DNA from: Escherichia coli
Lineage (GTDB): Bacteria > Pseudomonadota > Gammaproteobacteria > Enterobacterales > Enterobacteriaceae
Strand: one strand, 5' to 3'
Assembly: GCF_003019035.1 (NCBI RefSeq)
Contig: NZ_CP027447.1
Length of the DNA: 64,000 nt
The translations under genes were made by a program, and so were the position numbers. Positions 24,221-43,637 of the stretch are shown piece after piece. The notes under the pieces are model-generated. The model saw only the letters and a list, made by a program, of their open reading frames with translations. It did not search any database and was not told the DNA's origin. Every line of letters starts with the position of its first letter. Positions within the stretch are counted from its first letter, which is position 1.

Positions 24221-24222
24221 AT

Positions 24223-25206
24223 ATGTCTGAAAGACATTTACCTGATGACCAGAGCAGTACTATCGATCCATATCTAATTACCTCTGTTCGCCAGACTCTG
24301 GCAGAACAAGGCGCAGCATTACAAAACTTGTCTAAACAACTGGATTCCGGGCAGTACCAGCGTGTCCTTAATTTGATAATGAACTGTAAAGGGCACGTTA
24401 TTCTTTCGGGAATGGGTAAATCAGGGCATGTCGGTCGTAAAATGTCAGCGACGCTGGCCTCTACGGGTACGCCTAGTTTCTTTATTCATCCTGCAGAAGC
24501 TTTCCATGGCGATCTGGGCATGATTACGCCTTACGATCTTCTGATCCTTATTTCTGCCAGCGGTGAAACGGATGAAATCCTCAAGCTAGTTCCTTCACTG
24601 AAAAATTTCGGCAACCGAATTATCGCCATTACCAATAATGGAAATTCCACGCTGGCGAAAAATGCTGATGCCGTGCTGGAACTCCACATGGCGAATGAAA
24701 CCTGCCCGAATAATCTTGCACCAACAACGTCTACCACGCTGACGATGGCGATCGGCGATGCGCTGGCGATTGCCATGATCCACCAACGCAAATTTATGCC
24801 GAATGATTTTGCGCGCTATCACCCGGGCGGTTCATTAGGACGTCGCCTGCTGACCCGCGTTGCTGATGTCATGCAGCATGATGTTCCTGCGGTACAGCTG
24901 GATGCGTCATTTAAAACCGTGATTCAACGTATCACCAACGGATGCCAGGGAATGGTGATGGTAGAAGACGCAGAAGGTGGGCTAGCGGGCATTATCACCG
25001 ACGGTGACCTGCGTCGCTTTATGGAAAAAGAGGATTCTCTGACATCCGCCACGGCTGCGCAGATGATGACACGTGAACCGCTGACGCTACCGGAAGACAC
25101 CATGATCATTGAAGCGGAAGAAAAAATGCAAAAGCACCGCGTCTCAACGTTATTGGTGACCAACAAGGCAAATAAAGTCACTGGCCTTGTGCGCATTTTC
25201 GACTAA
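24223..25206 (+). CDS. kpsF: Arabinose-5-phosphate isomerase (capsule region 1)
   Basis: ORF 24187..25206; SIS and CBS domain composition; start MSERHLPDDQ. Confidence 0.85.
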   Translation: MSERHLPDDQSSTIDPYLITSVRQTLAEQGAALQNLSKQLDSGQYQRVLNLIMNCKGHVILSGMGKSGHVGRKMSATLASTGTPSFFIHPAEAFHGDLGMITPYDLLILISASGETDEILKLVPSLKNFGNRIIAITNNGNSTLAKNADAVLELHMANETCPNNLAPTTSTTLTMAIGDALAIAMIHQRKFMPNDFARYHPGGSLGRRLLTRVADVMQHDVPAVQLDASFKTVIQRITNGCQGMVMVEDAEGGLAGIITDGDLRRFMEKEDSLTSATAAQMMTREPLTLPEDTMIIEAEEKMQKHRVSTLLVTNKANKVTGLVRIFD

Positions 25207-25277
25207 TTAAGCAACGGGGTTCGAGAGGTTAGTCTCTCATTGAGTTTGCGCCCCACTGAAACTTTGATAATCGTTAC

Positions 25278-26426
25278 ATGTTGATAAAAGTGAAGTCTGC
25301 CGTATCCTGGATGCGTGCTCGTCTGTCTGCCATCTCACTGGCAGATATCCAAAAACACCTGGCGAAAATCATCATTCTGACACCGATGGCGGTGCTGCTG
25401 ATCTATCTGGCTATCTTCAGCCAGCCTCGCTATATGAGCGAGTCGAAAGTCGCCATTAAACGCTCGGATGATTTAAACAGCGGCAGCCTGAATTTTGGTC
25501 TGCTTCTGGGTGCCTCTAACCCCAGTTCCGCAGAAGATGCGTTGTATCTGAAAGAGTACATCAACTCGCCGGATATGCTGGCGGCGCTGGATAAGCAACT
25601 AAATTTTCGTGAAGCGTTTAGCCACAGCGGGCTCGATTTTCTTAATCATCTTAGCAAGGATGAAACCGCAGAAGGCTTCCTGAAGTACTACAAGGACCGT
25701 ATCAACGTCTCGTATGACGATAAAACCGGATTACTGAATATTCAGACGCAGGGCTTTAGCCCGGAATTTGCGCTTAAGTTTAACCAAACCGTGCTGAAAG
25801 AGTCAGAGCGCTTTATCAATGAGATGTCACATCGCATCGCGCGTGACCAGCTTGCCTTTGCAGAAACGGAGATGGAAAAGGCACGCCAGCGTCTGGACGC
25901 CAGCAAAGCGGAATTGCTCTCTTATCAAGACAACAACAACGTTCTGGATCCACAGGCACAGGCACAGGCGGCGAGCACGTTAGTGAATACGCTGATGGGC
26001 CAGAAGATCCAGATGGAAGCGGACCTGCGTAACTTGCTGACGTATCTGCGTGAGGACGCCCCGCAAGTTGTGAGTGCGCGTAATGCGATTCAGTCATTGC
26101 AGGCACAAATTGACGAAGAAAAAAGCAAAATCACAGCGCCGCAGGGTGACAAGCTAAACCGTATGGCGGTGGATTTTGAAGAAATCAAATCAAAAGTAGA
26201 GTTCAACACCGAGCTGTACAAACTGACCCTGACCTCCATTGAAAAGACCCGTGTAGAAGCGGCTCGTAAGCTCAAGGTGCTGTCAGTGATCAGTTCGCCA
26301 CAGTTGCCGCAGGAATCGTCTTTTCCAAATATCCCTTATTTGATCGCCTGCTGGTTACTGGTGTGCTGCCTGCTGTTCGGCACCCTGAAACTGTTGCTGG
26401 CTGTTATTGAAGATCACCGAGACTAA
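25278..26426 (+). CDS. kpsE: Capsule export inner-membrane protein KpsE (PCP-3 family)
   Basis: 382-aa ORF; N- and C-terminal membrane segments with periplasmic coiled-coil. Confidence 0.85.
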   Translation: MLIKVKSAVSWMRARLSAISLADIQKHLAKIIILTPMAVLLIYLAIFSQPRYMSESKVAIKRSDDLNSGSLNFGLLLGASNPSSAEDALYLKEYINSPDMLAALDKQLNFREAFSHSGLDFLNHLSKDETAEGFLKYYKDRINVSYDDKTGLLNIQTQGFSPEFALKFNQTVLKESERFINEMSHRIARDQLAFAETEMEKARQRLDASKAELLSYQDNNNVLDPQAQAQAASTLVNTLMGQKIQMEADLRNLLTYLREDAPQVVSARNAIQSLQAQIDEEKSKITAPQGDKLNRMAVDFEEIKSKVEFNTELYKLTLTSIEKTRVEAARKLKVLSVISSPQLPQESSFPNIPYLIACWLLVCCLLFGTLKLLLAVIEDHRD

Positions 26427-26446
26427 CGCTGTCGCTGAATGAGTTT

Positions 26447-28126
26447 GTGATGAAATTATTTAAATCAATTTTACTGATTGCCGCCTGTCACGCGGCGCAG
26501 GCCAGCGCGGCCATTGATATTAACGCTGACCCAAACCTTACAGGAGCCGCGCCGCTTACCGGTATTCTGAACGGGCAACAGTCGGATACGCAAAACATGA
26601 GCGGCTTCGACAATACCCCGCCGCCCGCACCGCCGGTGGTAATGAGCCGTATGTTTGGTGCTCAACTTTTCAACGGCACCAGCGCGGATAGCGGTGCGAC
26701 GGTAGGATTCAACCCTGACTATATTCTGAATCCGGGTGATAGCATTCAGGTTCGCTTGTGGGGTGCGTTCACCTTTGATGGTGCATTACAGATTGATCCC
26801 AAAGGTAATATTTTTCTGCCAAACGTTGGTCCGGTGAAAGTTGCCGGGGTTAGCAATAGTCAGTTGAACACTCTGGTTACATCAAAAGTGAAGGAAGTGT
26901 ACCAGTCCAACGTCAACGTCTACGCCTCCTTATTACAGGCGCAGCCAGTAAAAGTGTACGTGACCGGATTTGTGCGTAATCCTGGTCTGTATGGCGGTGT
27001 GACGTCTGATTCGTTACTCAATTATCTGATCAAGGCTGGCGGCGTTGATCCAGAGCGCGGAAGTTACGTTGATATTGTGGTCAAGCGCGGTAACCGCGTG
27101 CGCTCCAACGTCAACCTGTACGACTTCCTGCTGAACGGCAAACTGGGGCTTTCGCAGTTCGCCGATGGTGACACCATCATCGTCGGGCCGCGTCAGCATA
27201 CTTTCAGCGTTCAGGGCGATGTCTTTAACAGCTACGACTTTGAGTTCCGCGAAAGCAGCATTCCCGTAACGGAAGCGTTGAGCTGGGCGCGCCCTAAGCC
27301 TGGCGCGACTCACATTACGATTATGCGTAAACAGGGGCTGCAAAAACGCAGCGAATACTATCCGATCAGTTCTGCACCAGGCCGTATGTTGCAAAATGGC
27401 GATACCTTAATCGTGAGCACTGACCGCTATGCCGGCACCATTCAGGTGCGGGTTGAAGGCGCGCACTCCGGTGAACATGCCATGGTACTGCCTTATGGTT
27501 CCACTATGCGTGCGGTTCTGGAAAAAGTCCGCCCGAACAGCATGTCGCAGATGAACGCGGTTCAGCTTTATCGCCCATCAGTGGCTCAGCGTCAGAAAGA
27601 GATGCTGAATCTCTCGCTGCAAAAGCTGGAGGAAGCCTCACTTTCTGCCCAGTCATCCACCAAAGAAGAAGCCAGCCTGCGAATGCAGGAAGCACAACTG
27701 ATCAGCCGCTTTGTGGCGAAAGCACGCACCGTGGTTCCGAAAGGTGAAGTGATCCTCAACGAATCCAATATTGATTCTGTTCTGCTTGAAGATGGCGACG
27801 TCATCAATATTCCGGAGAAAACATCGCTGGTTATGGTTCATGGCGAAGTGCTGTTCCCGAACGCGGTGAGCTGGCAGAAGGGTATGACCACCGAGGATTA
27901 CATCGAGAAATGTGGTGGCCTGACGCAAAAATCGGGTAACGCCAGAATTATCGTCATTCGTCAGAACGGTGCTGCCGTCAACGCGGAAGACGTGGATTCA
28001 CTCAAGCCGGGCGATGAGATTATGGTTCTGCCGAAATATGAATCGAAAAATATTGAAGTTACCCGTGGTATTTCCACCATCCTCTATCAGCTGGCGGTGG
28101 GTGCAAAAGTGATTCTGTCTTTGTAA
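26447..28126 (+). CDS. kpsD: Capsule export outer-membrane/periplasmic protein KpsD (OPX family)
   Basis: 559-aa ORF with signal peptide. Confidence 0.85.
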   Translation: MMKLFKSILLIAACHAAQASAAIDINADPNLTGAAPLTGILNGQQSDTQNMSGFDNTPPPAPPVVMSRMFGAQLFNGTSADSGATVGFNPDYILNPGDSIQVRLWGAFTFDGALQIDPKGNIFLPNVGPVKVAGVSNSQLNTLVTSKVKEVYQSNVNVYASLLQAQPVKVYVTGFVRNPGLYGGVTSDSLLNYLIKAGGVDPERGSYVDIVVKRGNRVRSNVNLYDFLLNGKLGLSQFADGDTIIVGPRQHTFSVQGDVFNSYDFEFRESSIPVTEALSWARPKPGATHITIMRKQGLQKRSEYYPISSAPGRMLQNGDTLIVSTDRYAGTIQVRVEGAHSGEHAMVLPYGSTMRAVLEKVRPNSMSQMNAVQLYRPSVAQRQKEMLNLSLQKLEEASLSAQSSTKEEASLRMQEAQLISRFVAKARTVVPKGEVILNESNIDSVLLEDGDVINIPEKTSLVMVHGEVLFPNAVSWQKGMTTEDYIEKCGGLTQKSGNARIIVIRQNGAAVNAEDVDSLKPGDEIMVLPKYESKNIEVTRGISTILYQLAVGAKVILSL

Positions 28127-28135
28127 GGAGTTGAA

Positions 28136-28876
28136 ATGAGCAAAGCTGTTATTGTCATCCCGGCTCGTTATGGCTCATCGCGTCTGCCGGGTAAGCCGCT
28201 ACTCGATATTGTCGGCAAACCGATGATCCAGCATGTTTACGAGCGTGCGTTACAGGTGGCGGGCGTCGCAGAAGTTTGGGTGGCAACAGACGATCAGCGT
28301 GTTGAAAAGGCCGTGCAGGCATTTGGCGGGAAAGCCATCATGACGCGCAACGATCATGAATCCGGCACCGATCGGCTGGTCGAGGTGATGCATAAAGTCG
28401 AGGCAGATATCTACATTAACCTGCAGGGCGACGAACCAATGATTCGCCCGCGGGATGTAGAAACGCTGTTACAAGGAATGCGTGATGACCCCGCGTTGCC
28501 AGTGGCAACGCTATGCCACGCGATTTCTGCCGAAGAAGCGACCGAGCCAAGCACGGTAAAAGTGGTGGTAAATACCCGCCAGGATGCGCTTTATTTCAGC
28601 CGTTCGCCTATTCCGTATCCGCGTAATGCTGAAAAAGCGCGCTACCTGAAACACGTTGGTATTTACGCTTATCGTCGCGATGTGCTGCAAAACTACAGCC
28701 AGTTACCGGAGTCCATGCAGGAGCAGGCAGAATCACTGGAGCAGCTGCGGTTGATGAGCGCGGGGATCAACATCCGCACATTTGAGGTTGCCGCAACCGG
28801 TCCGGGCGTCGACACCCCAGCATGCCTGGAAAAAGTGCGCGCCCTGATGGCACAGGAACTGGCTGAAAACGCATGA
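28136..28876 (+). CDS. kpsU: CMP-Kdo synthetase (capsule-specific KdsB paralogue)
   Basis: 246-aa [25 protein letters not shown]. Confidence 0.85.
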
Positions 28877-30900
28877 TTGGCATTTTCTCGTCCGGTATCT
28901 GGCGTATTCCGCATCTGGAGAAATTTCTGGCGCAACCGTGCCAGAAACTTTCTCTGCTGCGCCCTGTTCCGCAAGAAGTTGATGCTATCGCCGTGTGGGG
29001 ACATCGTCCCAGCGCGGCGAAACCAGTCGCCATCGCCAAAGCAGCGGGAAAACCCGTCATTCGTCTGGAAGATGGATTTGTGCGTTCGCTGGATCTTGGC
29101 GTCAATGGCGAGCCGCCGCTTTCTCTGGTGGTGGATGATTGTGGCATTTACTACGATGCCAGCAAGCCTTCAGCACTGGAGAAACTGGTACAGGATAAAG
29201 CCGGAAATACAGCTCTGATAAGCCTGGCCAGAGAAGCGATGCACACCATCGTGACCGGGGATTTGTCGAAATATAACCTGGCACCTGCGTTTGTGGCTGA
29301 TGAGTCAGAACGTTCAGACATCGTTCTGGTTGTCGATCAGACATTTAATGATATGTCAGTGACGTATGGCAATGCTGGCCCGCATGAGTTTGCTGCCATG
29401 CTGGAAGCTGCGATGGCGGAAAATCCTCAAGCCGAAATTTGGGTGAAGGTGCATCCGGATGTCCTGGAAGGAAAGAAAACAGGTTATTTCGCTGATCTGC
29501 GTGCCACGCAACGAGTACGTTTGATTGCCGAGAATGTCAGCCCGCAGTCGCTGTTGCGACACGTTTCCCGGGTTTACGTCGTGACATCCCAATACGGCTT
29601 TGAAGCCTTGCTGGCAGGAAAACCAGTAACATGTTTCGGCCAGCCCTGGTATGCAGGCTGGGGCTTAACCGACGATCGCCATCCGCAGTCCGCTTTGTTA
29701 TCTGCCCGACGCGGTTCTGCCACGCTGGAGGAACTTTTTGCCGCTGCATACCTGCGTTACTGTCGCTATATCGATCCGCAAACGGGAGAAGTAAGCGATC
29801 TATTTACCGTACTGCAATGGCTGCAATTACAACGTCGACATCTGCAACAGCGTAATGGTTATTTATGGGCGCCAGGCTTAACGCTGTGGAAGTCAGCGAT
29901 CCTGAAACCTTTCTTACGAACGGCGACAAACCAGCTGAGTTTTTCACGTCGCTGTACTGCGGCAAGCGCCTGCGTGGTATGGGGTGTAAAGGGAGAACAG
30001 CAATGGCGAGCCGAAGCGCAACGAAAATCACTGCCGTTATGGCGAATGGAAGATGGTTTTCTGCGTTCATCCGGACTTGGCTCTGACCTTTTGCCGCCGC
30101 TATCGTTGGTGCTGGATAAACGCGGGATCTACTATGACGCCACGCGCCCCAGCGACCTGGAAGTGCTGATTAATCACAGCCAGTTAACGCTGGCGCAGCA
30201 GATGCGAGCTGAAAAATTACGCCAGCGGCTAGTTGAAAGTAAACTGAGCAAGTACAACCTGGGGGCCGATTTCTCTCTACCAGCCGAAGCCAAAGATAAA
30301 AAAGTTATCCTGGTGCCGGGTCAGGTAGAGGACGATGCCTCTATTAAAACAGGCACTGTCTCGATTAAGAGCAACCTTGAGTTATTACGCACAGTACGCG
30401 AGCGCAATCCGCACGCTTACATTATTTATAAACCGCACCCGGATGTACTGGTGGGGAATCGCAAGGGCAATATTCCGACAGAACTAATTGCTGAACTCGC
30501 TGATTATCAGGCACTGGACGCAGATATTATTCAATGCATTCAGCGCGCAGATGAAGTGCACACCATGACATCATTGTCCGGGTTTGAAGCGTTATTACAT
30601 GGCAAGCAAGTTCATTGTTACGGCCTGCCCTTCTATGCCGGTTGGGGTTTAACCGTTGATGAACATCACTGCCCGCGCCGCGAACAAAAATTAACGTTAG
30701 CAGATTTGATCTATCAGGCGTTGATTGTTTATCCAACCTATATCCACCCAACACGGCTACAACCTATTACGGTTGAAGAGGCGGCGGAATATTTGATCCA
30801 GACGCCGCGCAAGCCGATGTTTATTAGAAAAAATAATATTTACAGAGTTATTAACATTTACCGTAAGTTAATCATGTTCTGCAAAGTAAGACTGGGCTAA
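28873..30900 (+). CDS. kpsC: Capsule beta-Kdo transferase KpsC
   Basis: 675-aa ORF with duplicated domain architecture; start overlaps kpsU stop. Confidence 0.85.
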
Positions 30901-30934
30901 ACAATTTCATTGTTGACTATTACGCAAATTATTT

Positions 30935-32107
30935 ATGCAAGGTAATGCACTAACCGTTTTATTATCCGGTAAAAAATATCTGCTATTGCAGGGACCGATG
31001 GGACCTTTTTTCAATGACGTCGCCGAATGGTTAGAGTCATTAGGCCGTAACGCTGTGAATGTTGTGTTCAACGGTGGAGATCGTTTTTACTGCCGCAATC
31101 GACAATACCAGGCTTACTACCAGACACCGAAAGAGTTTCCCGATTGGTTGCGAGATCTCCACCGACAATATGACTTTGACACCATCCTCTGCTTTGGTGA
31201 CTGCCGCCCATTGCATAAGGAAGCAAAACGGTGGGCAACGTCGAAAGGGATCCGCTTTCTGGCATTTGAAGAGGGGTATTTACGTCCGCAATTTATTACT
31301 GTTGAAGAAGGCGGAGTAAACGCATATTCATCACTACCGCGCGATCCGGATTTTTATCGTAAGTTGCCAGATATGCCTGCACCGCACGTTGAGAACTTAA
31401 AACCTTCAACGATGAAACGTATTGGCCATGCGATGTGGTATTACCTGATGGGCTGGCATTACCGTCATGAGTTCCCTCGCTACCGCCACCACAAATCGTT
31501 TTCCCCCTGGTATGAGGCTCGTTGCTGGGTTCGTGCATACTGGCGCAAGCAACTTTACAAGGTAACACAGCGTAAGGTATTACCGAGGTTAATGAACGAG
31601 CTGGATCAACGTTATTATCTTGCCGTTTTGCAGGTGTATAACGATAGCCAGATTCGTAACCACAGTAATTATAACGATGTGCGTGACTATATTAATGAAG
31701 TCATGTACTCATTTTCGCATAAAGCGCCGAAAGAAAGTTATTTGGTGATCAAACATCATCCGATGGATCGTGGTCACAGACTCTATCGACCATTAATTAA
31801 ACGGTTGAGTAAGGAATATGGCTTAGGTGAGCGAGTCATATACGTGCACGATCTCCCGATGCCGGAATTATTACGCCACGCAAAAGCGGTGGTAACAATT
31901 AACAGTACGGCGGGGATCTCTGCGCTGATTCATAACAAACCACTCAAAGTGATGGGCAATGCCCTGTATGACATCAAAGGCTTGACGTATCAAGGGCATT
32001 TGCACCAGTTCTGGCAGGCCGACTTTAAACCGGATATGAAGCTGTTTAAGAAGTTTCGGGAGTATTTATTGGTGAAGACACAGATTAATGCGGTTTATTA
32101 TGGTTGA
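30935..32107 (+). CDS. kpsS: Capsule beta-Kdo transferase KpsS
   Basis: 390-aa ORF; conserved region 1 terminal gene. Confidence 0.85.
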   Translation: MQGNALTVLLSGKKYLLLQGPMGPFFNDVAEWLESLGRNAVNVVFNGGDRFYCRNRQYQAYYQTPKEFPDWLRDLHRQYDFDTILCFGDCRPLHKEAKRWATSKGIRFLAFEEGYLRPQFITVEEGGVNAYSSLPRDPDFYRKLPDMPAPHVENLKPSTMKRIGHAMWYYLMGWHYRHEFPRYRHHKSFSPWYEARCWVRAYWRKQLYKVTQRKVLPRLMNELDQRYYLAVLQVYNDSQIRNHSNYNDVRDYINEVMYSFSHKAPKESYLVIKHHPMDRGHRLYRPLIKRLSKEYGLGERVIYVHDLPMPELLRHAKAVVTINSTAGISALIHNKPLKVMGNALYDIKGLTYQGHLHQFWQADFKPDMKLFKKFREYLLVKTQINAVYYG

Positions 32108-32330
32108 AAGTGCACTCAAAAAACAAATCATCTATAAAGGTATTAAAATCTCTCTCGAGAGGATTAAACCTGCAATAAAACAATATTATAAGACCTTCAT
32201 CCCCATTATAACACAGATAAATTTATACAGTATTCATAAGGGAACCGACTGGATATTTCCAATATAGTATTACCTTATTGCGTGCTCAGTGTAACTCTTA
32301 GCAATCGAAGGTCAATACAATGAAGCATGT

Positions 32331-33092
32331 TTATTTAAAATTCTGATTGTATCTATCAATAAGTATCTCATCATTACATAAATACGTATCAACAAATGAT
32401 TCTATACGAGAAACTGAAATACGCTCAGATGTATCATTAGAACCGTGATTCATAATATAGCAAACAACTGGAGTCTTCATAGCTAATACACTTCTTCCGA
32501 ATGCCAATGAAGATTCTGGATATTTTGTATGGTCTTTTAGTGAAAATAGAAATGTCCCTTTCTCTTCCTGATTTGAACAATCCTTGGCATCTAACTTAGA
32601 TATAAAACAACTACCACAATTTTTATAGAATATCTTTGTAACTCCATCAAGGTAAGCGATCTTCTCCCTGCGGGCATCAAACACATAACCTGTATAAAAT
32701 GCCAGATCATCAGCATCAGGATTTCGGGAAAACATATATTCTACTTGATAAGTGAAATCTTTGGATACCAGATCATCTGCATCAATAAACATGAAATAGT
32801 CACCAACTTTTGCAGTTTCGAGTATTTTTCGACGCGCGACATTTTTTTTTGATGCTTTGTCTGCCATGTAACCATTTTTATCTTCCGGGACGGGATGCCA
32901 GACTTTGATAAACTCAGTCCGTGGATTCTGATATCCACTTATAAACTCAGGAATGTCATGACATGCAACGACAATGCGATAGTCGCCACCCGCCCCCTCA
33001 ATTGACTTGATTGTAGCTTCCAGTCGAACGCAAACTTCATTCCAATCGTTAGAAGTCTGTTTTGCCCTGAGTGGGATTGCATAATGAAACAT
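32331..33092 (-). CDS. Putative glycosyltransferase or capsule-modifying enzyme (DxD motif, FIDADD)
   Basis: 253-aa ORF, AT-rich, between kpsS and kpsT; DADD motif suggests nucleotide-sugar transferase; function inferred only. Confidence 0.45.
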   Translation of the reverse strand: MFHYAIPLRAKQTSNDWNEVCVRLEATIKSIEGAGGDYRIVVACHDIPEFISGYQNPRTEFIKVWHPVPEDKNGYMADKASKKNVARRKILETAKVGDYFMFIDADDLVSKDFTYQVEYMFSRNPDADDLAFYTGYVFDARREKIAYLDGVTKIFYKNCGSCFISKLDAKDCSNQEEKGTFLFSLKDHTKYPESSLAFGRSVLAMKTPVVCYIMNHGSNDTSERISVSRIESFVDTYLCNDEILIDRYNQNFK

Positions 33093-33171
33093 TTTTATTC
33101 CTTATATACGTTAAATTAATAATATTATAATAAAGAGAACTACCTAATGTAAATAATATAAAATATTACAG

Positions 33172-33837
33172 CTAGGTAATATTCTCTTCTTCAGTGTATT
33201 TTTTTATGGCCTGTTCAACATCGTCATAATAATGAATAGCATTATCTCTACCCAAAAAAAGCGCAACATCACAGTATTCTTTTAATGAGTTAAGGCTGTG
33301 CGAAACCATAACAAAATTAGATTCAGAACGCCTAGCTTTAAATATTTTTGCACATTTCTCTCTAAATCGAGCATCACCAACCGCGGTAATTTCATCGACC
33401 AAATAGTAATCAAATTTGAACGCCATGCTTAATCCAAATCCTAGACGAGATCGCATCCCTGATGAATAAGACTTGATCGGCATATCAAAATATGTACCTA
33501 ATTCCGAAAATTCTTCTACAAAATTAATTTTTTCTTTAAGATCTTTTTTATCTGCATATAAACGCGCTACAAACTTTACATTTTCCCTTCCAGTCAGACT
33601 TCCTTGAAAACCACCAGAAATTCCAACAGGCCAAGAAATAGTTTTGTTTGTATAAACGGCCCCCTTGTCTGGTCTATCTATACCACCTATTATACGAAGA
33701 AGAGTGGATTTACCTGCTCCATTACGTCCAAGTAGCGCAATACTTTTACCACTTGGTAATTCAACATTTAAATCTTTAAATACATAATGTCGTCCTTGTG
33801 GTGTGAGATATGATTTAGTTAAGTTTTTAATTATGAT
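33172..33837 (-). CDS. kpsT: Capsule ABC exporter ATP-binding protein
   Basis: ORF 33172..33897; Walker A GRNGAGKST, ABC signature YSSGMRSRL, Walker B YYLVDE; likely start at MIIIKNLTKSY. Confidence 0.8.
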   Translation of the reverse strand: MIIKNLTKSYLTPQGRHYVFKDLNVELPSGKSIALLGRNGAGKSTLLRIIGGIDRPDKGAVYTNKTISWPVGISGGFQGSLTGRENVKFVARLYADKKDLKEKINFVEEFSELGTYFDMPIKSYSSGMRSRLGFGLSMAFKFDYYLVDEITAVGDARFREKCAKIFKARRSESNFVMVSHSLNSLKEYCDVALFLGRDNAIHYYDDVEQAIKKYTEEENIT

Positions 33838-34035
33838 CATAAAGTTAATAACACCTTGTGTATTGCTATACAATATAGGAACTCCGCATCTACCCAAGCA
33901 GTGATAAAAATAGGCCCATTATAAATGTTTTATAAATTTTAATTATAGGGAAACACATTAGAATGGGCCATGTAAATTATCGATACATCATCATAATTAA
34001 CAGTTTGGGCGTCATGACTCCCTTTAATTATACAA

Positions 34036-36798
34036 CTATATAAAAGCAATTTCTTTACTAAATCCTTTTTTAATAATTTTACAATTTTTCAAGTAATCAT
34101 CGTCTTCGATCCTCCATGTATGAGAATTCGTATTTCCATAACGCATTTGAATAAAGTTATATTTATCTGATGAGTAAATAATGAAGCCATTTTTCTTGCA
34201 TTCTTTGAGGAAATTAGTGTCTTCACCACGGTTTATGCATTCAAACTTAATTTTTTCAAAAACCTCTTTTCTAATTACTAAACTTCCTCCTGAAATGAAA
34301 TCAGAATAACGATTATCTTTTCCTGGTTGCTTAACTGCCATGATGTCTTTAGATTCTACATAGCAAAAATAAGAATCTTTGCCTACAATGTCGGCACCAC
34401 TAAATTTAAAAGCTTGCAAAGCGTCTAATAAATAGTTATCACCATAAAAATCATCATCATCCATCTTGGCAAGATAATCTCCTGAGGCATGAGTAACACC
34501 ATAATTAAGACACTCACCAAGAGTTATATCCTGTGGTAACTGATATACTTTAACATTAGGCATTCCATTTATCTTGTTTTTAACCACATTTATATCAAAA
34601 CTATCATTATTTAATATAAGTAATAACTCTTTATTCACGTGAGATTGTCGATGATAATTATCAAGCATCATATCAATATTATTGGGACGATTAGTACACA
34701 TAATTATTGATACTTTATCATCTTGAATGACCTTATTTTTAACTCCTATAGTCTTTAGAATCTGCTCAAAACGTTGTTGATACGAATGATACCGAATACA
34801 ATGACGAGCGGCCAAATGTCCTAAACGTTCACGTTCAATATCAGACTCAAGCAACCGTTGAACAATAGTTTTCGCTTCGAGTTTGTCTTTAACAATATGT
34901 ACATGTTCACCAAGCATAGCTTTCATACCATCAGAATGAGTTGATACAACTGGTGTACCGCAAGCCAAAATTTCGAAAACCCGACGGGAGAACATAGTTG
35001 GTGAGTCCTGAACAGTGTTGATATTCAGGAATAGCTTGTATTGTCTATAAGCAGTGAGCATCTGTTCATAGTCAAGTGAACCAACTATAAATGGTTGGTA
35101 TTTTTCAGGAAAGATTCGTGATTCTCTATGTTTGGTTGCATGCAGCATTCGGTCGTATATATGCAATTCACGATGTGCTGTTCCATCAAGGACAATTTCT
35201 GTTTGTGCTCGACGAGTATCATGTCCATTATTATACCAACTACCGGCAAAACATACTTCGTAAACTGGAAGTTTTTTATTCTTATCACGAATTGGGTTGT
35301 GGATAGCTGGTTGTGCCGCAAAAGGAAGTGCGTATACTCTATTATGTCCAACACGAGACTTGTATTTTTCTAAGATATTCCCATCAGTTGTGAATATATA
35401 GTCACAATCAGCTGCAACATCAATAAAGACTTCGTAGTTGGTTGGATCCTCCTTATTCCAAAATACTACAGGAATATTCTTGGATTGACAGTATTTGATA
35501 ACTTTGCGAAGTGGATCACCCAAATGTTTTTTATAACTCACCATGGTATATGTCCACTCACCATTATTACCATTCCAAGCTGATTCAAGAAATAACATTA
35601 CTGGGTGTGATTCGTCGATCTCTGATTTCCAATTTTGCTTGGTTAACGGAATAAAGTTTGCCTCATAGCGAAAGCATTCATAAGTAAACTTATCACAGAT
35701 CGTTACAACATTGATATGCTGATTTCGCAAGTGTGCATGTGATTCAAAGACAGGCCAACTAATCTCATTATCATGTTTTACCTCATTATAAACACCAACA
35801 CTTTCAAGCAATTGCTTCTTGACACGACAGTTAAGAGGGGGGTGATCAAATTTGCCTTTACGCTTAGCCGCACGAATCTTTATTAGCTTTTGAGGCAAGG
35901 AAAGAAAACCTTTCAGGCTGCTACGTTTAGTCTCTACCATAGTTTTGCCTAAACGATAGTATAAAGACCTTTCTAGTTTCTGCTTCTCGTAGAGAGCTGT
36001 AGCAAGCTTGTCTTTAAGCTCGTCAATTTTTTGCTTTTGTATTTGTGGTGATTCTGGTAATGAGAGAATTCGCGTCTCGAAAGCTTTTGTCAGCGTTTTT
36101 GCTTTCACTTCAAAGTGTCGTATAATTTCCTCATGGCTTTGGCAATTATCAAGCCTTATTGCATTCACGGGTAAAGTTTCTTCAATGTAGAGTTTAATAG
36201 GTTCAATACGAAGTGAACCTTGCCCTTTAAAACGTAATGCCATACTAAAGTAACGCGCATCAGGCATTGTATCGAATTCAATATGATTAATACCGTTATA
36301 AATAAGTTGATATTTGTGAGTAATTCTTTTATTTTCATCATACTGGATAATAAAAATTGCACATTCAGGTCGATTCTCTCCATATGATGTATTTAATACT
36401 AATCGATACTTGAATCCACCATTGATACGCCAGGAGTTTTTGTCCAATGGCAACCCATTAATATTCATACTGCCAGTTTGTAAATAAAAAGAGTCTCCAT
36501 TTATCAAATCCATTTCTACAAACAAACTTCCATCTGACTCTATATGCAAATGCTTATTACGACTATTATCAGCAGGTAATAACCATTCGGTCGATGATTC
36601 TATATTAGAAAGACCATTGAAAGGTAAAAACGGATAGTTTTGCTCTTTCCATTCTATTTTATTGGCCTTACGTGATAATAGACGAAAAAGTTTTTCGAAA
36701 TGACTATCATAGATTGAAAATGCCACCTGAAGTTGGTTAATTTCATCCCCAGTGTGTAATTTATTTTTTACTTTTTTCTTAGTAAGACGATTTGACAT
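34036..36798 (-). CDS. Large three-domain putative capsule polymerase: N-terminal unknown domain, central CgeB-like (GT1-fold) domain, C-terminal GT2 domain
   Basis: 920-aa ORF; central region paralogous to the 329-aa ORF at 39371..40360 (shared ...VFWNKEDP...FAAQP...SRRVFE...G.P... pattern); C-terminus has GT2 hallmarks (VSIIMCTNRP, DDDDF). Confidence 0.6.
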   Translation of the reverse strand: MSNRLTKKKVKNKLHTGDEINQLQVAFSIYDSHFEKLFRLLSRKANKIEWKEQNYPFLPFNGLSNIESSTEWLLPADNSRNKHLHIESDGSLFVEMDLINGDSFYLQTGSMNINGLPLDKNSWRINGGFKYRLVLNTSYGENRPECAIFIIQYDENKRITHKYQLIYNGINHIEFDTMPDARYFSMALRFKGQGSLRIEPIKLYIEETLPVNAIRLDNCQSHEEIIRHFEVKAKTLTKAFETRILSLPESPQIQKQKIDELKDKLATALYEKQKLERSLYYRLGKTMVETKRSSLKGFLSLPQKLIKIRAAKRKGKFDHPPLNCRVKKQLLESVGVYNEVKHDNEISWPVFESHAHLRNQHINVVTICDKFTYECFRYEANFIPLTKQNWKSEIDESHPVMLFLESAWNGNNGEWTYTMVSYKKHLGDPLRKVIKYCQSKNIPVVFWNKEDPTNYEVFIDVAADCDYIFTTDGNILEKYKSRVGHNRVYALPFAAQPAIHNPIRDKNKKLPVYEVCFAGSWYNNGHDTRRAQTEIVLDGTAHRELHIYDRMLHATKHRESRIFPEKYQPFIVGSLDYEQMLTAYRQYKLFLNINTVQDSPTMFSRRVFEILACGTPVVSTHSDGMKAMLGEHVHIVKDKLEAKTIVQRLLESDIERERLGHLAARHCIRYHSYQQRFEQILKTIGVKNKVIQDDKVSIIMCTNRPNNIDMMLDNYHRQSHVNKELLLILNNDSFDINVVKNKINGMPNVKVYQLPQDITLGECLNYGVTHASGDYLAKMDDDDFYGDNYLLDALQAFKFSGADIVGKDSYFCYVESKDIMAVKQPGKDNRYSDFISGGSLVIRKEVFEKIKFECINRGEDTNFLKECKKNGFIIYSSDKYNFIQMRYGNTNSHTWRIEDDDYLKNCKIIKKGFSKEIAFI

Positions 36799-36849
36799 AT
36801 CTATATTCTTTCAATTAAAAAAGTGTTTTCCAGACCAAAATAATATATA

Positions 36850-38103
36850 TTAATTGGCAGCATTTACAAAATCTAGTATTGTAGCGGTTGTATACTTTTT
36901 ATTAATAAGACCTTTAAATTCTTTATGCTTAACTAAAACTAGAACAATATCTGCTTGTTCCAGTGCCTCAGAGAGAGAAACCAATTTAACGTTATTACGT
37001 CCTTTTAAAGCTGATGGCAAATCATCAATATTAGGTTCAACTACTAAAAGCCGATTAGCAGGGTTATCTGCTAATCTTTTGGTAATTTCTAATGCAGGGC
37101 TTTCTCGTAGGTCATCAATATCCGGTTTAAATGCCAATCCCAAACAAGCGATCTTTGGGTTTCTTAGGCCGACAACAACTTGGCTAATTTTTTCAATCAC
37201 ATATTGAGGTTTATAATCGTTGACTAAGCGGGCCTGGTGAATTAACTTTGCAAGTTCTGGATTTTGGTTAACTATAAACCAAGGGTCAACTGCTATGCAA
37301 TGACCGCCAACACCACAGCCAGGCTGAAGAATATTAACTCGCGGATGCCGATTAGCCAATGAAATTAACTCCCATACATTTATACCTTGTTTATCGCAGA
37401 TTAGTGACAGTTCATTTGCAAAAGCAATGTTCACATCCCGAAAAGCATTTTCCGTTAACTTACTCATCTCAGCGGTACGCGCATTAGTGGCAATACATTC
37501 ACCTTTTTTAACGAAAAGTTTGTATAATTCAATTGCTGAAGTTGTACTGTGCTCATCCAGTCCCCCAATGATCCGGTCATTTTCAACTAATTCACGTATA
37601 ACTTGTCCTGGTAACACTCGCTCGGGGCAATGCGCAATGCAAATATCAGCCTTCAATCCATTTTTCATCTGATGAGGAAATGTTAAATCTGGACGCTCTT
37701 CTGCTAACCATTTAGCCATTTGCTCAGTAGCACCAACAGGCGAAGTGGACTCTAAAACAACCAGATTACCCTTTTCAAGTAGTGGCGCTAATGCACGTGA
37801 AGCTGATTCAATATATTTTAAATCAGCCTCAAAGTTCTTTCCTTTAAACGGTGTCGGTACAGCCATGAGGAATGCATCAGCTTTTTGCGGTTCTGTAAAG
37901 GCTTTCAAATATCCTTGGCTAACAGCAGACTTCACTAACTCCTGCAGTCCTGGCTCAACAATATGAATATTCCCTTGATTAATTGTATCTACAGCGTACT
38001 TGTTGATATCTACACCAACAACGTGAATATTGTTGCTAGCAATCACTGCTGCAGTAGGTAAACCAATATACCCTAAACCAATAACAGAAATACGTTTAAA
38101 CAT
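36850..38103 (-). CDS. UDP-N-acetyl-D-mannosamine dehydrogenase (WecC/Cap5O-like)
   Basis: 417-aa ORF with N-terminal Rossmann motif GLGYIGLPTA and UDP-sugar dehydrogenase catalytic Cys region. Confidence 0.75.
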   Translation of the reverse strand: MFKRISVIGLGYIGLPTAAVIASNNIHVVGVDINKYAVDTINQGNIHIVEPGLQELVKSAVSQGYLKAFTEPQKADAFLMAVPTPFKGKNFEADLKYIESASRALAPLLEKGNLVVLESTSPVGATEQMAKWLAEERPDLTFPHQMKNGLKADICIAHCPERVLPGQVIRELVENDRIIGGLDEHSTTSAIELYKLFVKKGECIATNARTAEMSKLTENAFRDVNIAFANELSLICDKQGINVWELISLANRHPRVNILQPGCGVGGHCIAVDPWFIVNQNPELAKLIHQARLVNDYKPQYVIEKISQVVVGLRNPKIACLGLAFKPDIDDLRESPALEITKRLADNPANRLLVVEPNIDDLPSALKGRNNVKLVSLSEALEQADIVLVLVKHKEFKGLINKKYTTATILDFVNAAN

Positions 38104-38185
38104 AATATTGAATCACTCTCTTGGACTAATTTTAATTAACATTAGTATAGATAAAAAAAGCTGTAATAATTTGCTGTTAGTTTAT

Positions 38186-39331
38186 TTATTCCAGTTGATA
38201 TCTAAAACCTAAAACAGCATCTACAATTCGCTGACTTGTTTTGCCATCACCATAAGGATTATTTGCATGACTCATTGACTGATATGTGACATCATCATCT
38301 AATAGACGAATAGTTTCACTCACGATTTCCTTATCACAAGTGCCTACTAAACGCACTGTTCCTGCTTTAACCGCAGCAGGCCGTTCAGTTGTATCACGCA
38401 TACATAGAACTGGCTTTCCTAATGACGGAGCTTCTTCTTGAATCCCGCCAGAATCTGTTAATATCAGATAACATTGCTTCATTAGATATACAAATGGTAA
38501 ATAATCCTGAGGTTCAATTAGATAAATATTTTCTAATTTTTGCAAATTTCTTTTCACTGGTTGTTGCACATTTGGATTCAAATGTACTGGGTAAATGATT
38601 TGAACGTCATCTCGTTGAGACAATTTAGCTAAAGCATTGCAAATTCGTTCAATTCCTTCTCCATGATTTTCTCTGCGGTGTAAGGTGACAAGGATCATTT
38701 TTTTATTTTTATCGATAAAATCAAATTGAGACTCCAACTGTTTTCTTAATATGGAGTTTTGTTCAATTTTGTTTGATACAGACACCAAAGCATCAATAAC
38801 TGAATTCCCTGTTAAAAAAATATTTTCTGGTGGAATATTTTCCATTATAAGATTTTTCAATGCACCAGCAGTCGGAGCATAGTGTTGGTCAGCAATTCCT
38901 CCCGTTAGTCGACGCATACCTTCTTCAGGCCATGGAGAATAAATATTTCCTGTGCGTAGACCGGCTTCAACATGGCCTACAGCAATATGATGATAATAAG
39001 CAGCTAATGTTGCTGCGAATGAAGTTGCTGTATCTCCATGGACAAGGATACGATTTGGTGTAAATTTAGAAAATACCGTTTTTAACCCTTGTAAGATAGC
39101 TGTTGTTACATCGGTTAAATCTTGACCAGGCCTCATAATATTGAGATCATAGTCAGGCTTAATCTCAAATAATTTTAACACTTGATCCAACATCTCACGA
39201 TGCTGTCCAGTTACACATACTCGCGCGTCTATTAGATTATTATTTTCAAATGCCTTAACAATAGGGGCCATTTTTATAGCCTCTGGTCTAGTACCAAATA
39301 TTATAAGTATTTTTTGCTGTATCATTTTCAT
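38186..39331 (-). CDS. UDP-N-acetylglucosamine 2-epimerase, non-hydrolysing (WecB-like)
   Basis: 381-aa [28 protein letters not shown]...; strong family resemblance. Confidence 0.8.
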
Positions 39332-39370
39332 CCTTCTTTAACATTAAAGAATAAACATTACATTTTTTAA

Positions 39371-40360
39371 CTAATAAAGTTCAAAATCCCGATTCATCTG
39401 CTGAAGGCGATGATGCCAGGTATGTTGAGATAATACAATTTCTTTTGCGCGTTCCCCCAAGACAGTTCTTTTATTTATGTCTTTTTGCAATTCCAAACAC
39501 CATTCTCGCGCGGATTGACCATTCGCAATTGAAATAATACTATCCTCAAATATACGATTCATAGCTATTGATGGACTGCTGATTATAGAACACCCTGAAG
39601 CACCTAATTCAAAAACCCTCCGTGAAAGCATTGTTGTAGATTTTCTAATTGTATTAAAATTTAGATAGATTTGATATTGAGTGTATGCCTGTGCAACTAA
39701 ATTTAAAGGAATTGATGGTCGACAATATACATGTAAATCATTTGGATAACTACAGTTATTTTTTTTATTCCAAAATCGATCATAAATAACCAACCCACAT
39801 CTTGAAAGTGAGTGTAGAACATCATATTGCATTTGGCTCCTTTCACTAAACTGATTACCATAGTAGCCACCAAAAAATGCAACACCATATTTCCGCTTTA
39901 CTTGAGGAACAGACTTATACCAATGAGGTTGCGCTGCAAACATCAGTACACCTACTGACTGGCACCTGTGGTCTAGTAATGAGTCATATCGATTAATTGA
40001 ATCCGCGTCTGTTGTATATATTATATCAAAAAAAGAAGCTGAATCAGAAAACCTTTCAAAATGGAATGGATCTTCTTTATTCCAAAATACAGTTTTTATT
40101 TTTTTTCTTTTGCAATATTCAACTATTTTCTTTAATTCATTGTTATTATCTGGTTTGTTTTCATAACTTGCTATTTTACCTTGCCAGCTATTCCTATATC
40201 CTCTCCAAGCAGATTCAACAAACAAAAAATCAGGTTTAAACAAGCGTAATTTCCAACGCCAATCAAAGGGAGTTAAAGGCAAAATATCTGCATCTGGAGC
40301 CAAACCATATGTCGTAAACTCATCTGCGATTAATGCAATACAAGGTTTTTTTTTCTTCAA
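39371..40360 (-). CDS. CgeB-like glycosyltransferase-fold protein
   Basis: 329-aa ORF paralogous to the central domain of the 920-aa protein; apparent TTG start followed by an A9 tract. Confidence 0.5.
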   Translation of the reverse strand: MKKKKPCIALIADEFTTYGLAPDADILPLTPFDWRWKLRLFKPDFLFVESAWRGYRNSWQGKIASYENKPDNNNELKKIVEYCKRKKIKTVFWNKEDPFHFERFSDSASFFDIIYTTDADSINRYDSLLDHRCQSVGVLMFAAQPHWYKSVPQVKRKYGVAFFGGYYGNQFSERSQMQYDVLHSLSRCGLVIYDRFWNKKNNCSYPNDLHVYCRPSIPLNLVAQAYTQYQIYLNFNTIRKSTTMLSRRVFELGASGCSIISSPSIAMNRIFEDSIISIANGQSAREWCLELQKDINKRTVLGERAKEIVLSQHTWHHRLQQMNRDFELY

Positions 40361-40729
40361 AATAATTCCCGCTGAATATTATTGAGTTCATACTAACAAA
40401 GAATCATTGATTGAATTTAAAGCATGTTATAAATACACTTTGACATGATTGCATCCAAAGCATCATAATTAAATAAATGTATTATTTTCCAACAAGGTCA
40501 TCTTATATAGATTATTATATATAAATGAGTGATATGGAATTATATTGGAACGAACAGAATGCGACTTAAAACATAACGCATTTGAGCATTAATAAAAATA
40601 TTACTTATTATAACATTAAAAAATACTTTCTTATGCCGTGCCATTATCTTTTAACTAGCACAGTTTTTATTATATTAATATTATTAATATAATAAAATCT
40701 AAACCGTTATTTATTTTATTCACAACAAC

Positions 40730-41728
40730 TTATATACCTAAAATATATTTAACCTTCCTGTACATTGTATCATAACGATCTACATGGCCAGGTTTATTAT
40801 CAAAGTATATGCTATAATCTCGAATATCATCCCCCCTATCAATACATCGTTGTATAAATGATAAAAGCAATGTTGTGTCGTAATGGCATTCATCACTAAT
40901 GGCGTTTTTATATTTATCTCTAAAAATACGATAATTCTCTTCTCTTGCACTATAATAACTATCATTGTGCTTTTTGTCATGATATAAATGAAGAGCTAAA
41001 TCTTTCTGAAGCAATATATCTAAACAATACTCTCCCAAATATTTTCTGAACCCAGTAGTAAATAACGGAGAATGACATGGTTTATCTATCAAAAAATCAG
41101 ATTTTAGTTTTGACAAAAAGTGATGGTTATATAAACGTATCAAAAAATCAAAATCTTCATACCCATGACCTTGAAAGCTTTCATCAAACCCATGTATTTT
41201 TTTATAGCTTTCTGACTTCAAAATTGTAATAGAGGAGGGACTTGCTAAATGTAAAAACTCTTTTCTTGAAAAATCAAAATATCTTTTTTTTAATAACTCT
41301 ACTGATATCTTTTTTTTAATTAATATGTGCGTCCCATATTTTGTCAAATATAAACACGGTAAAATATAGAATGGTTTTACTCCTTTTTGTATTTTATTTT
41401 TATATTTTTCGAATAAAACAACATCAGGATATATATCCACATCAAGCAATATGATAAATTCAGTATCAACTAATTTGAATGCAAAATTTCTTAGCAATGA
41501 AGTATTTATGTATTTATAACTACAATCGTATGAATTGACAATAACATGGTTATATTCACTCAAGGCTTCTATAAATACATGATCGTATTTAGTAAAGCGA
41601 TTTCCGTGACCAAATATAATTTTAAAATTATTTTCCCTAGTTGCTTCGGCAATACTAATTGCTTTCTGAATAATATCTTTAGGTCTGCGTTTTAGGTCTA
41701 TTGGGATTATAGCGGTTAACATTTTCAA
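40730..41728 (-). CDS. Putative GT2-family glycosyltransferase
   Basis: 332-aa ORF with AIIPI...LLDVDIYP and GYEDFDF motifs; extremely AT-rich. Confidence 0.45.
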   Translation of the reverse strand: MKMLTAIIPIDLKRRPKDIIQKAISIAEATRENNFKIIFGHGNRFTKYDHVFIEALSEYNHVIVNSYDCSYKYINTSLLRNFAFKLVDTEFIILLDVDIYPDVVLFEKYKNKIQKGVKPFYILPCLYLTKYGTHILIKKKISVELLKKRYFDFSRKEFLHLASPSSITILKSESYKKIHGFDESFQGHGYEDFDFLIRLYNHHFLSKLKSDFLIDKPCHSPLFTTGFRKYLGEYCLDILLQKDLALHLYHDKKHNDSYYSAREENYRIFRDKYKNAISDECHYDTTLLLSFIQRCIDRGDDIRDYSIYFDNKPGHVDRYDTMYRKVKYILGI

Positions 41729-41822
41729 ACTATTTGTAAGCCATAACAGATGTATGTTACAAAATCCATAGTATTTTCAATTGTGGCATTTCCTTTTTTA
41801 TTAAATTGCAAAGCCACACTAA

Positions 41823-42599
41823 TCATGATGTCAGCATTGCCTCTTCACGCGTTCGGTATAACGCCAGACCGATGAACAGGGTGACCAGAGTGAACATTGC
41901 AAGGTAGTTTAGACTCACGCCTTCGCTGATATAGCCAGGCATAACTGCCTCGCGGCTTAACTCTACGACATGCACTAATGGATTCCAGAGTAGATATGAC
42001 CAGTATTGCTTCGGAATCGAGTGTAGAGGGAACATGATGCAGGAGATGAAATACAGCGGCTTAAGCAGTATCGGCAGGACCTTTTGCATTTCAGGGAAAG
42101 TCTTACCAACGACCATGAATATTAAGCCAACGCCACATGAAAGAATGATTAACAAACTCCAGGTAAGCACAAGTTGTAAAAAGTTTGTTATTTCGAAATA
42201 TTCGCCTGCCATCCAGACAATAAGCATAAGCAATATATAAACAGCAACATAAATCAGTGTCTCAAGCAATGCACGCGCAATGATCGTATCGATGGGTTTT
42301 ACTGGTCGATAATTAAACAGCCCCTGATTCGCTTCAATAGCACCTACAGAACGATTGCTGATACTGCTAAAGATAAAAAAGGGAATCAGGCCATTAAGTA
42401 AAAACACCGGGAATGAGATGTCTGGCATCGTGCGGTGCATAATGTAACCAAAAATGCCCAACAGTATCAGCAAATGCGCAGAGGGTTCGAGAATCGCCCA
42501 CAGATATCCCAGACGGAACTTACCAAAGCGTGTTCGTATTTCTCGTAGAAATAATGCCTCTACGGTGACTTTCTGGACTTCAAATCCACTTCTTGCCAT
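41823..42599 (-). CDS. kpsM: Capsule ABC exporter permease
   Basis: ORF 41823..42659; start MARSGFEVQKVTVEALFLREIRTRFGK; ABC-2 permease. Confidence 0.85.
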   Translation of the reverse strand: MARSGFEVQKVTVEALFLREIRTRFGKFRLGYLWAILEPSAHLLILLGIFGYIMHRTMPDISFPVFLLNGLIPFFIFSSISNRSVGAIEANQGLFNYRPVKPIDTIIARALLETLIYVAVYILLMLIVWMAGEYFEITNFLQLVLTWSLLIILSCGVGLIFMVVGKTFPEMQKVLPILLKPLYFISCIMFPLHSIPKQYWSYLLWNPLVHVVELSREAVMPGYISEGVSLNYLAMFTLVTLFIGLALYRTREEAMLTS

Positions 42600-42630
42600 T
42601 TGATGATGTGATCCTAATCTCTTCAGGTAC

Positions 42631-42642
42631 GCTACCGCCCTT
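42631..42642 (-). promoter_or_regulatory. ops (operon polarity suppressor) / JUMPstart element for RfaH-dependent antitermination
   Basis: Minus-strand sequence GGCGGTAGCGTA about 30 nt upstream of the kpsM start; matches the ops core GGCGGTAG known upstream of kpsM. Confidence 0.6.
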
Positions 42643-43637
42643 GGCTTAACAGCTACCAATACACTGGAGGTAATGCTTATTTGTAACTGGATAAAATTTA
42701 CTCAGACGGTTTGACCTTTTTAATAGCCGCAAAAAATTTCAGCAGAAATTATTTCCGCAGGGATAAATAGATCTATTTCCGTCTCGTTTCTTCTAATCCA
42801 TTCTTCAGGCATGAATGTATTCGGTCTTCTGGTAATTTCAGAAAACTGGCCGTTTTAGAATGTAGAGTTAATTTCTCAGGAAATTATTTTTTGTTCTTAC
42901 TGTTAACTACTTGATTATAATACCCCATATGGATTTTATGCGTAACAATACCTGCAATCTGTTTCAAACCAGAACGCATGCGATTGATTACCAATAAATT
43001 GTTTAGCGAGAAACTATTTCCCTATTTAAAATTCACTCATGTACTTCTTATTTATATCTACAGCACCCTCTTTACAGTCACATTTGTGATTTACATCACA
43101 TTTAAACGGTGTTATTTAAGCCCCATTAATAATTCCGTGAGTAATTATTTTCGTCAATTAAAATATACATCTTGATTATTTTGTGCGTTTATTTTAACCA
43201 GCGTTACAGCCAGCATTATCCCTCAGTAGATATACCTGAGCAGACATTTCTTAAAATCGACGAATAGTTTCCCTGGAAATTATTATGCTTATTTGAAATT
43301 CCCTTTCTGATTATCTCCAGTAATTTTACTAATTTCCAGGCTACACAAAATACAGATCACATAAGAATTATCCTATATGTTTTGACCTATCAATTGTTAC
43401 TCAATGATTTATTACAACTATTAATAATCATAATGTGTCAAAACACTTAAGCATCTTTACAGTCTTAGAAAGGTGTCGATTAACGAAGGCTACATGGTGA
43501 AAAACAGGTTCCTTCAGTGTTACCGAATATTCCGTGGTGGTCTGGAGGGAGATAATTCTTGCTACATCGAAACTCAGCCCGGTGAGCGGGTTTGACAGTT
43601 CCGCACTCACCATTGGGCTAAGGGTTATCAGGTGGGG

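Follow-up and report, generated by a model that had tools for sequence, protein, structure and literature searches.

The group 2 capsule (kps) locus of this Escherichia coli genome raises the question of how kpsT, the gene for the ATPase of an ABC transporter, is expressed when it no longer lies beside kpsM, and what part a short inverted repeat directly upstream of the displaced gene plays in that expression. The window, by which we mean the whole stretch of 64,000 nucleotides that was analyzed, is 100% identical to DNA of strain SCU-301. From its open reading frames and from the annotation of the identical SCU-301 locus we recognized kpsFEDUCS, kpsM, kpsT, an ops-containing leader and the neighboring gsp type II secretion genes, which together identify the region around the repeat as a group 2 capsule locus adjoining gsp.

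Region 1, with kpsF, kpsE, kpsD, kpsU, kpsC and kpsS, lies on the plus strand at about 24187-32107. On the minus strand, kpsM (41823-42599) is followed by a galactosyltransferase-related gene (332 aa, 40730-41728), a CgeB-like gene (39371-40360), wecB (38186-39331), wecC (36850-38103) and a gene for a 920-aa glycosyltransferase with two domains, Glyco_trans_1_2 and Glycos_transf_2 (34036-36798). This enzyme is the presumed polymerase of a ManNAcA-containing capsule, and wecB and wecC fit such a polymer, as made by K7. A spacer of 195 bp (33841-34035, minus strand) then leads to kpsT, a diverged allele of 222 aa (33172-33840, minus strand, with its ATG at 33840), and downstream of kpsT to a gene for a family-A glycosyltransferase of 253 aa (32331-33092, minus strand). 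All minus-strand genes from kpsM to this last glycosyltransferase gene are co-oriented and converge on kpsS. The two transporter genes, kpsM and kpsT, are thus separated by five biosynthesis genes, some 8 kb in all, and by the hairpin described below.

Such a displacement is already on record in catalogues of K types and is not new. K7, K51, K52, K104 and others are listed with kpsM/kpsT rearrangements in a 2026 catalogue (PMC13171606), and the locus in the window has its layout of kpsM, K-specific genes and then kpsT next to kpsS in common with a frequent sister locus that carries wecB, wecC and the gene for the 920-aa enzyme. The locus in the window appears to be related to K7, where kpsT sits in the serotype-specific region; none of the five complete genomes in which the stretch with the hairpin is found was matched, by accession, in the supplements of the K-type catalogues. 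About 1400 standard kpsMT loci are homologous to the window up to position 41820 exactly, and the resulting kpsT-less junction between kpsM and a glycosyltransferase gene occurs in 101 of 5426 complete E. coli genomes, so kpsT is relocated in about 2% of them. The variant with the hairpin stretch is rare, being present in 5 of the same 5426; its carriers are SCU-301, D2, 510016, EC6563 and WP4-S18-ESBL-08. Its closest outside relatives, the metagenome contigs L002 to L004, have kpsM and kpsT overlapping as usual, followed by a homologue of the 332-aa gene. At the junction in the window, the kpsM stop codon overlaps ATGATTA (41820-41826, minus strand), the first 7 nt of the lost kpsT, and an ORF of 33 codons (MISVALQFNKKG...) is left there, in the spacer at 41729-41822; in one sister locus (L009) this ORF is called as a gene.

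Comparison with the sister locus, which is much the commoner form, revealed how sharply the DNA around the repeat is bounded. Five examples (L006 to L009 and L020) are collinear with the window and 96.8% identical to it over a stretch that begins with the PR3 leader and runs into the stop codon of the gene for the 920-aa glycosyltransferase, where homology ends one base short of the end of that codon. Beyond this first breakpoint the sister locus has a DUF6270 gene, a spacer of 639 bp and a different kpsT allele next to kpsS, whereas the window has its 195-bp spacer, its own kpsT allele and the gene for the 253-aa enzyme. The two kpsT alleles share 76% identity in DNA and 80% in protein, and KpsT of the window has at most 83% protein identity to anything else in the database. 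The second breakpoint, at 33857, precedes the kpsT ATG by about 17 nt. A stretch at 33841-33857 (minus strand) is common to other kpsT genes, BLAST alignments with the sister locus L006 and the metagenome contig L003 starting 16 to 17 nt before the ATG, and includes a Shine-Dalgarno-like AAGGTG at 33852-33857 (minus strand) that is present in both kpsT regions. Compared by eye, this stretch could possibly be a decayed 3' end of kpsM; tblastn and tblastx found no remnant of a kpsM pseudogene in the spacer, and the resemblance by eye covers at most 20 to 35 nt near the ATG.

Between the two breakpoints lies orphan DNA (33858-34035, about 160 to 180 bp) that has no homologue in the sister loci or in any collection searched. 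None was found among 50 loci retrieved for comparison, and the spacer showed no homology to the DNA that flanks the 920-aa gene on its 3' side in Aeromonas, in Leclercia or in other loci of E. coli. The spacer's only matches in E. coli are copies of this locus itself, in 5 of 5426 genomes. A pattern that takes the structure of the hairpin into account was absent from one genome each of 100,044 species and from JGI metagenomes; 29 matches in the viral contigs of IMG/VR, with the same pair of arms at a gap of 36 to 46 nt, share only these 8-bp arms around unrelated interiors and are chance matches rather than copies. BLAST against phages returned only short AT-rich chance matches. The covariance models of Rfam 15 gave only chance matches (E of at least 1.9) far below the gathering scores, so that no described RNA family was recognized, and a repeated extragenic element, a MITE or the end of an insertion sequence was rejected on the single copy per genome and the absence of copies from the genomes, metagenomes and viral contigs searched. 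The other aligned copies of the spacer are identical to it except for one C/T polymorphism upstream of the hairpin; the hairpin itself is invariant, and therefore no support from covariation is obtainable. A search for a donor through the closest proteins outside the locus reached at most 83% identity for KpsT and 79% for the 253-aa enzyme, values from which we conclude that the donor of the segment comprising the spacer, kpsT and the gene for the 253-aa enzyme is unsampled.

The block of the CgeB-like gene, wecB, wecC and the 920-aa gene is a portable cassette that is also found in Aeromonas, in Leclercia and in E. coli loci resembling group 3, with kpsM and kpsT adjacent there. Homologues of the 253-aa enzyme are encoded beside or after the 920-aa gene elsewhere, at 52% identity (L016 and L017) and 63% (L050); since they accompany the 920-aa enzyme, kpsT and its spacers lie here inside a serotype-specific gene set. 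The closest relatives of the 253-aa enzyme (79% and 76% identity) are cargo genes of P2-like prophages (L012, 9001-9762; L013, 9001-9765), one of them in Aeromonas media, and the homology is confined to the ORF, which suggests a phage-shuttled, serotype-modifying enzyme that was recruited into the K locus.

The initial annotation had drawn attention to an 8-bp inverted repeat upstream of kpsT, and the repeat is indeed there: on the plus strand, ggcccatt occupies 33913-33920 and aatgggcc 33962-33969. The arms, said to bracket about 40 nt, are 41 nt apart; 72 nt separate the repeat from the kpsT start codon, and 66 nt separate it from the stop of the 920-aa glycosyltransferase gene. Taken alone, the 8-bp repeat is not beyond chance. 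Perfect 8-bp inverted repeats with loops of 3 to 50 nt number 75 in the window, and at least one arises in 24% of dinucleotide-shuffled versions of the spacer; imperfect inverted repeats number 81 in 11.7 kb. Across the 10.5-kb capsule region there are 18 perfect ones, against 11.9 +/- 3.4 in shuffled sequence, and the spacer itself holds two more 8-bp inverted repeats, both all-AT.

A second claim concerned the interior of the repeat, which was said to resemble a motif in the kpsM leader and so to be, perhaps, a duplicated regulatory module. The interior does read TTTCCCTATAATTAAAATT in the minus-strand sense, that of kpsT, and a copy of the motif does exist upstream of kpsM (TTTCCCTATTTAAAATTC, 43017-43034), but that copy is on the plus strand, antisense to kpsM, and the likeness does not rise above chance. 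The motif TTTCCCTAT occurs twice in the window and likewise in 7 of 100 shuffled sequences. The best local alignment between the spacer and 1 kb of kpsM leader is this very motif, in opposite orientation, with a score of 27 that is equaled or exceeded in 28 of 300 shuffles, and the best score in the same orientation is 17, below the shuffle mean of 23. Because the two copies are oppositely oriented relative to the genes and the match is not significant, a duplicate of the control region in the kpsM leader was rejected. Nor does the element recur elsewhere in the genome, each genome holding a single copy.

The arms had been described by themselves, and they turn out to be merely the base of a longer hairpin that is followed by a run of U residues. 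In the kpsT-sense strand, 33913-33969 forms a predicted imperfect stem-loop of 57 nt whose perfect 8-bp base, GGCCCAUU paired with AAUGGGCC, contains five G-C pairs, a stable GC-rich stem such as intrinsic terminators have. Above the base are helices of UAA/UUA, GUGUUU/AAACAU (with one G-U pair) and UAUAA/UUAUA, closed by an apical loop of 7 nt, in the order GGCCCAUU-C-UAA-U-GUGUUU-CCC-UAUAA-(7-nt loop)-UUAUA-AAACAU-UUA-U-AAUGGGCC. The stem, of about 22 pairs, is interrupted by three internal mismatches or loops, and its upper part is all A-U. Directly 3' of it is the tail UAUUUUUAUC (33903-33912, minus strand), with 7 U in its first 9 nt; the tract UAUUUUUAU at 33912-33904 begins right after the stem and so falls within the 0 to 2 nt expected of a terminator, on the minus strand only. 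On the plus strand the stem is followed by atgtaaatt, which has no T-run, and the terminator-like anatomy is therefore one-directional, in the sense of kpsT.

The extended fold, as modeled, exceeds chance, unlike the 8-bp repeat. Alone, the hairpin has a predicted energy of -17.6 kcal/mol. On the kpsT-sense strand an 80-nt context folds at -18.8 kcal/mol (z = -3.95) and a 91-nt context at -21.4 kcal/mol (z = -4.95), and in contexts of 80 to 91 nt no more than 0 or 1 of 200 dinucleotide shuffles folded as stably; the antisense strand folds more weakly, at -16.7 kcal/mol (z = -2.35). When energy was adjusted for GC content by regression, the hairpin window came fourth among all 80-nt windows on the sense strand across the 10.5-kb capsule region. 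Of the first four, three were intergenic, namely, the spacer between kpsT and the 253-aa gene, that between the 332-aa gene and the CgeB-like gene, and the hairpin spacer. By raw energy it ranked only 61st of 2083, and as the hairpin was also picked after the fact, these ranks are suggestive and not decisive. A loose scan of the minus strand for hairpins with U-rich tails (32000-43700) placed it lowest in energy among the matches listed.

The spacer also contains two tiny ORFs, both probably chance ORFs in AT-rich DNA. One, at 34014-33976 (minus strand), encodes MTPKLLIMMMYR and has AAGGGAG 2 nt before its ATG. The other, at 33971-33939 (minus strand), encodes MAHSNVFPYN and starts with AUGGCCCAUU, its AUG-GCC-CAU coinciding with the 5' arm of the hairpin, and its translation would melt the stem.

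The hairpin thus resembles intrinsic terminators in its GC-rich base, the U-run immediately 3' of it, its sense orientation, its position after a stop codon and a predicted stability that is typical of them. It differs in being unusually long (57 nt) and interrupted, where terminators of E. coli are compact, in its A-U-rich top, in not being called by a scan for consensus terminators and in standing before an essential gene of the pathway. On balance it is an ordinary, routine intercistronic terminator-like element in the junction DNA of a known rearranged layout. As to its function, the account that we prefer, tentatively and at somewhat less than an even chance, is that the inverted repeat is the base of a terminator- or attenuator-like hairpin between cistrons that is read through by RfaH-modified polymerase from the kpsM promoter.

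This proposal draws on what is established for related capsules. RfaH lowers both pausing and termination by RNA polymerase, modestly at some intrinsic terminators too. In the K1/K5 paradigm, an ops element located 28 bp before kpsM loads RfaH, and region 2 is known to be expressed by read-through from PR3 that depends on this factor and is essential for all that follows (PMC8960920); in both K1 and K5, transcription past region 3 requires RfaH (PMC8960920, PMC9765446). In strain CFT073, RfaH remains with RNA polymerase along the entire kps unit, and in its absence polymerase occupancy collapses toward the end of that unit (PMC9765446). The locus in the window is similar to the PR3 units of K5 and K1: its kpsM leader carries an ops element (GGCGGTAGCGT, 42629-42639, minus strand) at 29 nt from the kpsM ATG, and the genes downstream of kpsM are co-oriented and AT-rich. 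It departs from them in what follows kpsM: in the paradigm kpsT comes directly after kpsM and then region 2, whereas here five biosynthesis genes and the hairpin intervene, so that kpsT is predicted to depend on long-range read-through. The ops element of the leader is the only one in leader position in the transcription unit from kpsM to the 253-aa gene. The JUMPstart/ops core GGCGGTAG has its sole leader-position copy upstream of kpsM (42632-42639, minus strand) and none in the kpsT spacer, so that a second ops or JUMPstart element there was rejected. With all genes co-oriented, ops only before kpsM and no promoter in the spacer passing the scan described below, expression of kpsT by read-through is the best supported.

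Under our model, kpsT would have no demonstrable control region of its own and would be transcribed within a long PR3 transcript comprising the kpsM leader with ops, kpsM, the five biosynthesis genes, kpsT and the last glycosyltransferase gene. RNA polymerase loaded with RfaH at ops would pass the hairpin, polymerase lacking this factor would be prone to stop at it, and the hairpin would thereby set or lower the level of kpsT relative to the upstream genes. Three steps of this model are inferred: the hairpin would fold inside the cell, it would terminate or attenuate transcription, and RfaH would suppress this effect. The hairpin could also act as a 3'-end stabilizer of the upstream message. 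A stronger version, in which an RfaH-gated attenuator evolved or was co-opted after the relocation of kpsT and made the export ATPase the final control point of the PR3 transcript, seems to us improbable; if true, it would yield KpsT only after an antiterminated polymerase had crossed the biosynthetic block and would couple export capacity to polymer synthesis. In this version, a second layer of control might come from the -10 hexamer within the loop and from the tiny ORF beginning in the 5' arm (AUGGCCCAUU...).

Other loci with a relocated kpsT bear on the model in both directions. In the independent locus L018 (E. coli CP070098.1), kpsM, a 330-aa glycosyltransferase gene and a 1248-aa glycerophosphotransferase gene are followed by a spacer of 171 bp (8830-9000) and the relocated kpsT. 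That spacer is not homologous to the one in the window, and it holds a hairpin, CCCAGTCT...AGACTGGG, with a 10-bp stem followed by UUAUUUAUC, about 78 nt before the kpsT ATG (z = -2.95). A nonhomologous hairpin with a U-run at a similar distance before a relocated kpsT favors the terminator-like reading, whereas in the K7-like sister locus L020 the hairpin that precedes kpsT is followed by no U-run, which argues that a terminator is not a conserved requirement there. A terminator placed directly before an essential export gene is, moreover, counterintuitive unless it is leaky or suppressed.

Nearly as likely as the terminator-like hairpin, and a serious possibility, is a functionless palindrome that arose by chance in AT-rich, horizontally acquired junction DNA, with kpsT simply read through from upstream. 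The frequency of 8-bp repeats in shuffled spacers and across the locus speaks for this explanation, the two additional all-AT repeats mark the spacer DNA as palindrome-prone, and the hairpin is neither conserved in the sister loci nor copied in any collection searched. Chance accounts less readily for an extended fold far more stable than its shuffles (z of -4 to -5), for an intergenic position in sense orientation with a U-run immediately after the stem, or for the concentration of the structured windows of the locus in intergenic spacers. An internal promoter or a control region belonging to kpsT itself, built on the TATAAT within the hairpin (33942-33947) or on another AT-rich site, would produce a transcript that lacks the 5' arm and hence does not fold into the hairpin. 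Internal promoters of region 2 have been reported for the K5 locus. A looser scan found, as its best case, this hexamer, which is the motif of the initial annotation and a perfect -10, at a spacing of 17 nt from TGGCCC, which matches 3 of 6 positions of a -35; two more TATAAT hexamers lie in the spacer, kpsT has its own Shine-Dalgarno-like AAGGTG, and PR3 itself has been described with a -10 but without a -35 (PMC8960920). We nonetheless consider such a promoter unlikely: no site on the kpsT strand of 33841-34035 reached the threshold of the sigma-70 scan, TATAAT should arise frequently in DNA as poor in GC as this (26%), promoter-like sites in the region are fewer than in its shuffles (44 versus 55), no ops element precedes kpsT, and the likeness to the kpsM leader is at chance level and wrongly oriented.

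The remaining suggestion, also made in the initial annotation, is that the repeat is a scar or site of recombination, a trace of how kpsT was placed here, for example a mobile-element terminus, a site for cassette recombination or a junction formed through a hairpin. Its location in junction DNA holds up: the repeat is surrounded by orphan DNA with a sharp homology breakpoint on either side, kpsT has seemingly entered between two genes for glycosyltransferases that related loci have next to or near each other, IS1 can be present at the corresponding place in the sister locus (L006), and kpsM/kpsT rearrangements are frequent in these K types (PMC13171606). There is, however, no sign that the repeat itself is a product of recombination. 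The hairpin is 66 nt from one breakpoint and about 55 nt from the other rather than at either, it has no flanking direct repeats beyond chance 10-mers, inspection found no integron attC-type core sites (GTTRRRY/RYYYAAC), and the hairpin resembles neither an Rfam family nor any repeated element in E. coli, the genomes of 100,044 species, metagenomes or viral contigs. We therefore judge a recombination scar to be very improbable, the least probable of the readings considered.

Should the terminator-like hairpin truly attenuate transcription, it would show how expression of an ABC-transporter ATPase stays balanced after kpsM and kpsT have been separated by 8 kb, and it would offer a natural test case for the action of RfaH on a signal resembling an intrinsic terminator. 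The broader facts, that kpsT is relocated in about 2% of genomes and that a rare variant carries a prophage-related glycosyltransferase, are more useful for K typing than for regulation.

Several other structured elements were observed in the locus. The spacer of 369 bp at 40361-40729, just after the 332-aa gene, contains an almost perfect all-A/T palindrome of 39 nt (40662-40700) with 19-nt arms that are 95% complementary; it is kept in the sister locus and is among the most structured windows after GC adjustment. A hairpin at 33139-33180 (minus strand), UUACCUAGCUGUAA...UUACAUUAGGUAG, extends across the stop codon of kpsT, with a U-rich stretch after it; among sense-strand windows it ranks first once GC is adjusted for, yet its z is only -1.85 in a 101-nt context. 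Another, at 32200-32244 (minus strand), is located some 85 nt beyond the stop codon of the unit's final gene, within the convergent spacer toward kpsS. Its 3' arm has the 10-mer TTATAATGGG in common with the main hairpin; kinship between the two was rejected, as this 10-mer does not stand out from the others shared by chance within 2 kb.

The sister loci showed variation of their own. In the draft sequence of L006 the spacer between the DUF6270 gene and kpsT is broken by a scaffold gap (12600-12760), flanked by sequences that we take to be IS1 terminal repeats (GGTGATGCTGCCAACTTACTGATTTAGTGT...). The complete genome of HM670 (L020) has this 639-bp spacer uninterrupted. Its 332-aa glycosyltransferase gene (L020, 11229-12195) is annotated as two fragments, separated by a frameshift or stop, and the K7-like locus of HM670 may thus be partly inactivated.
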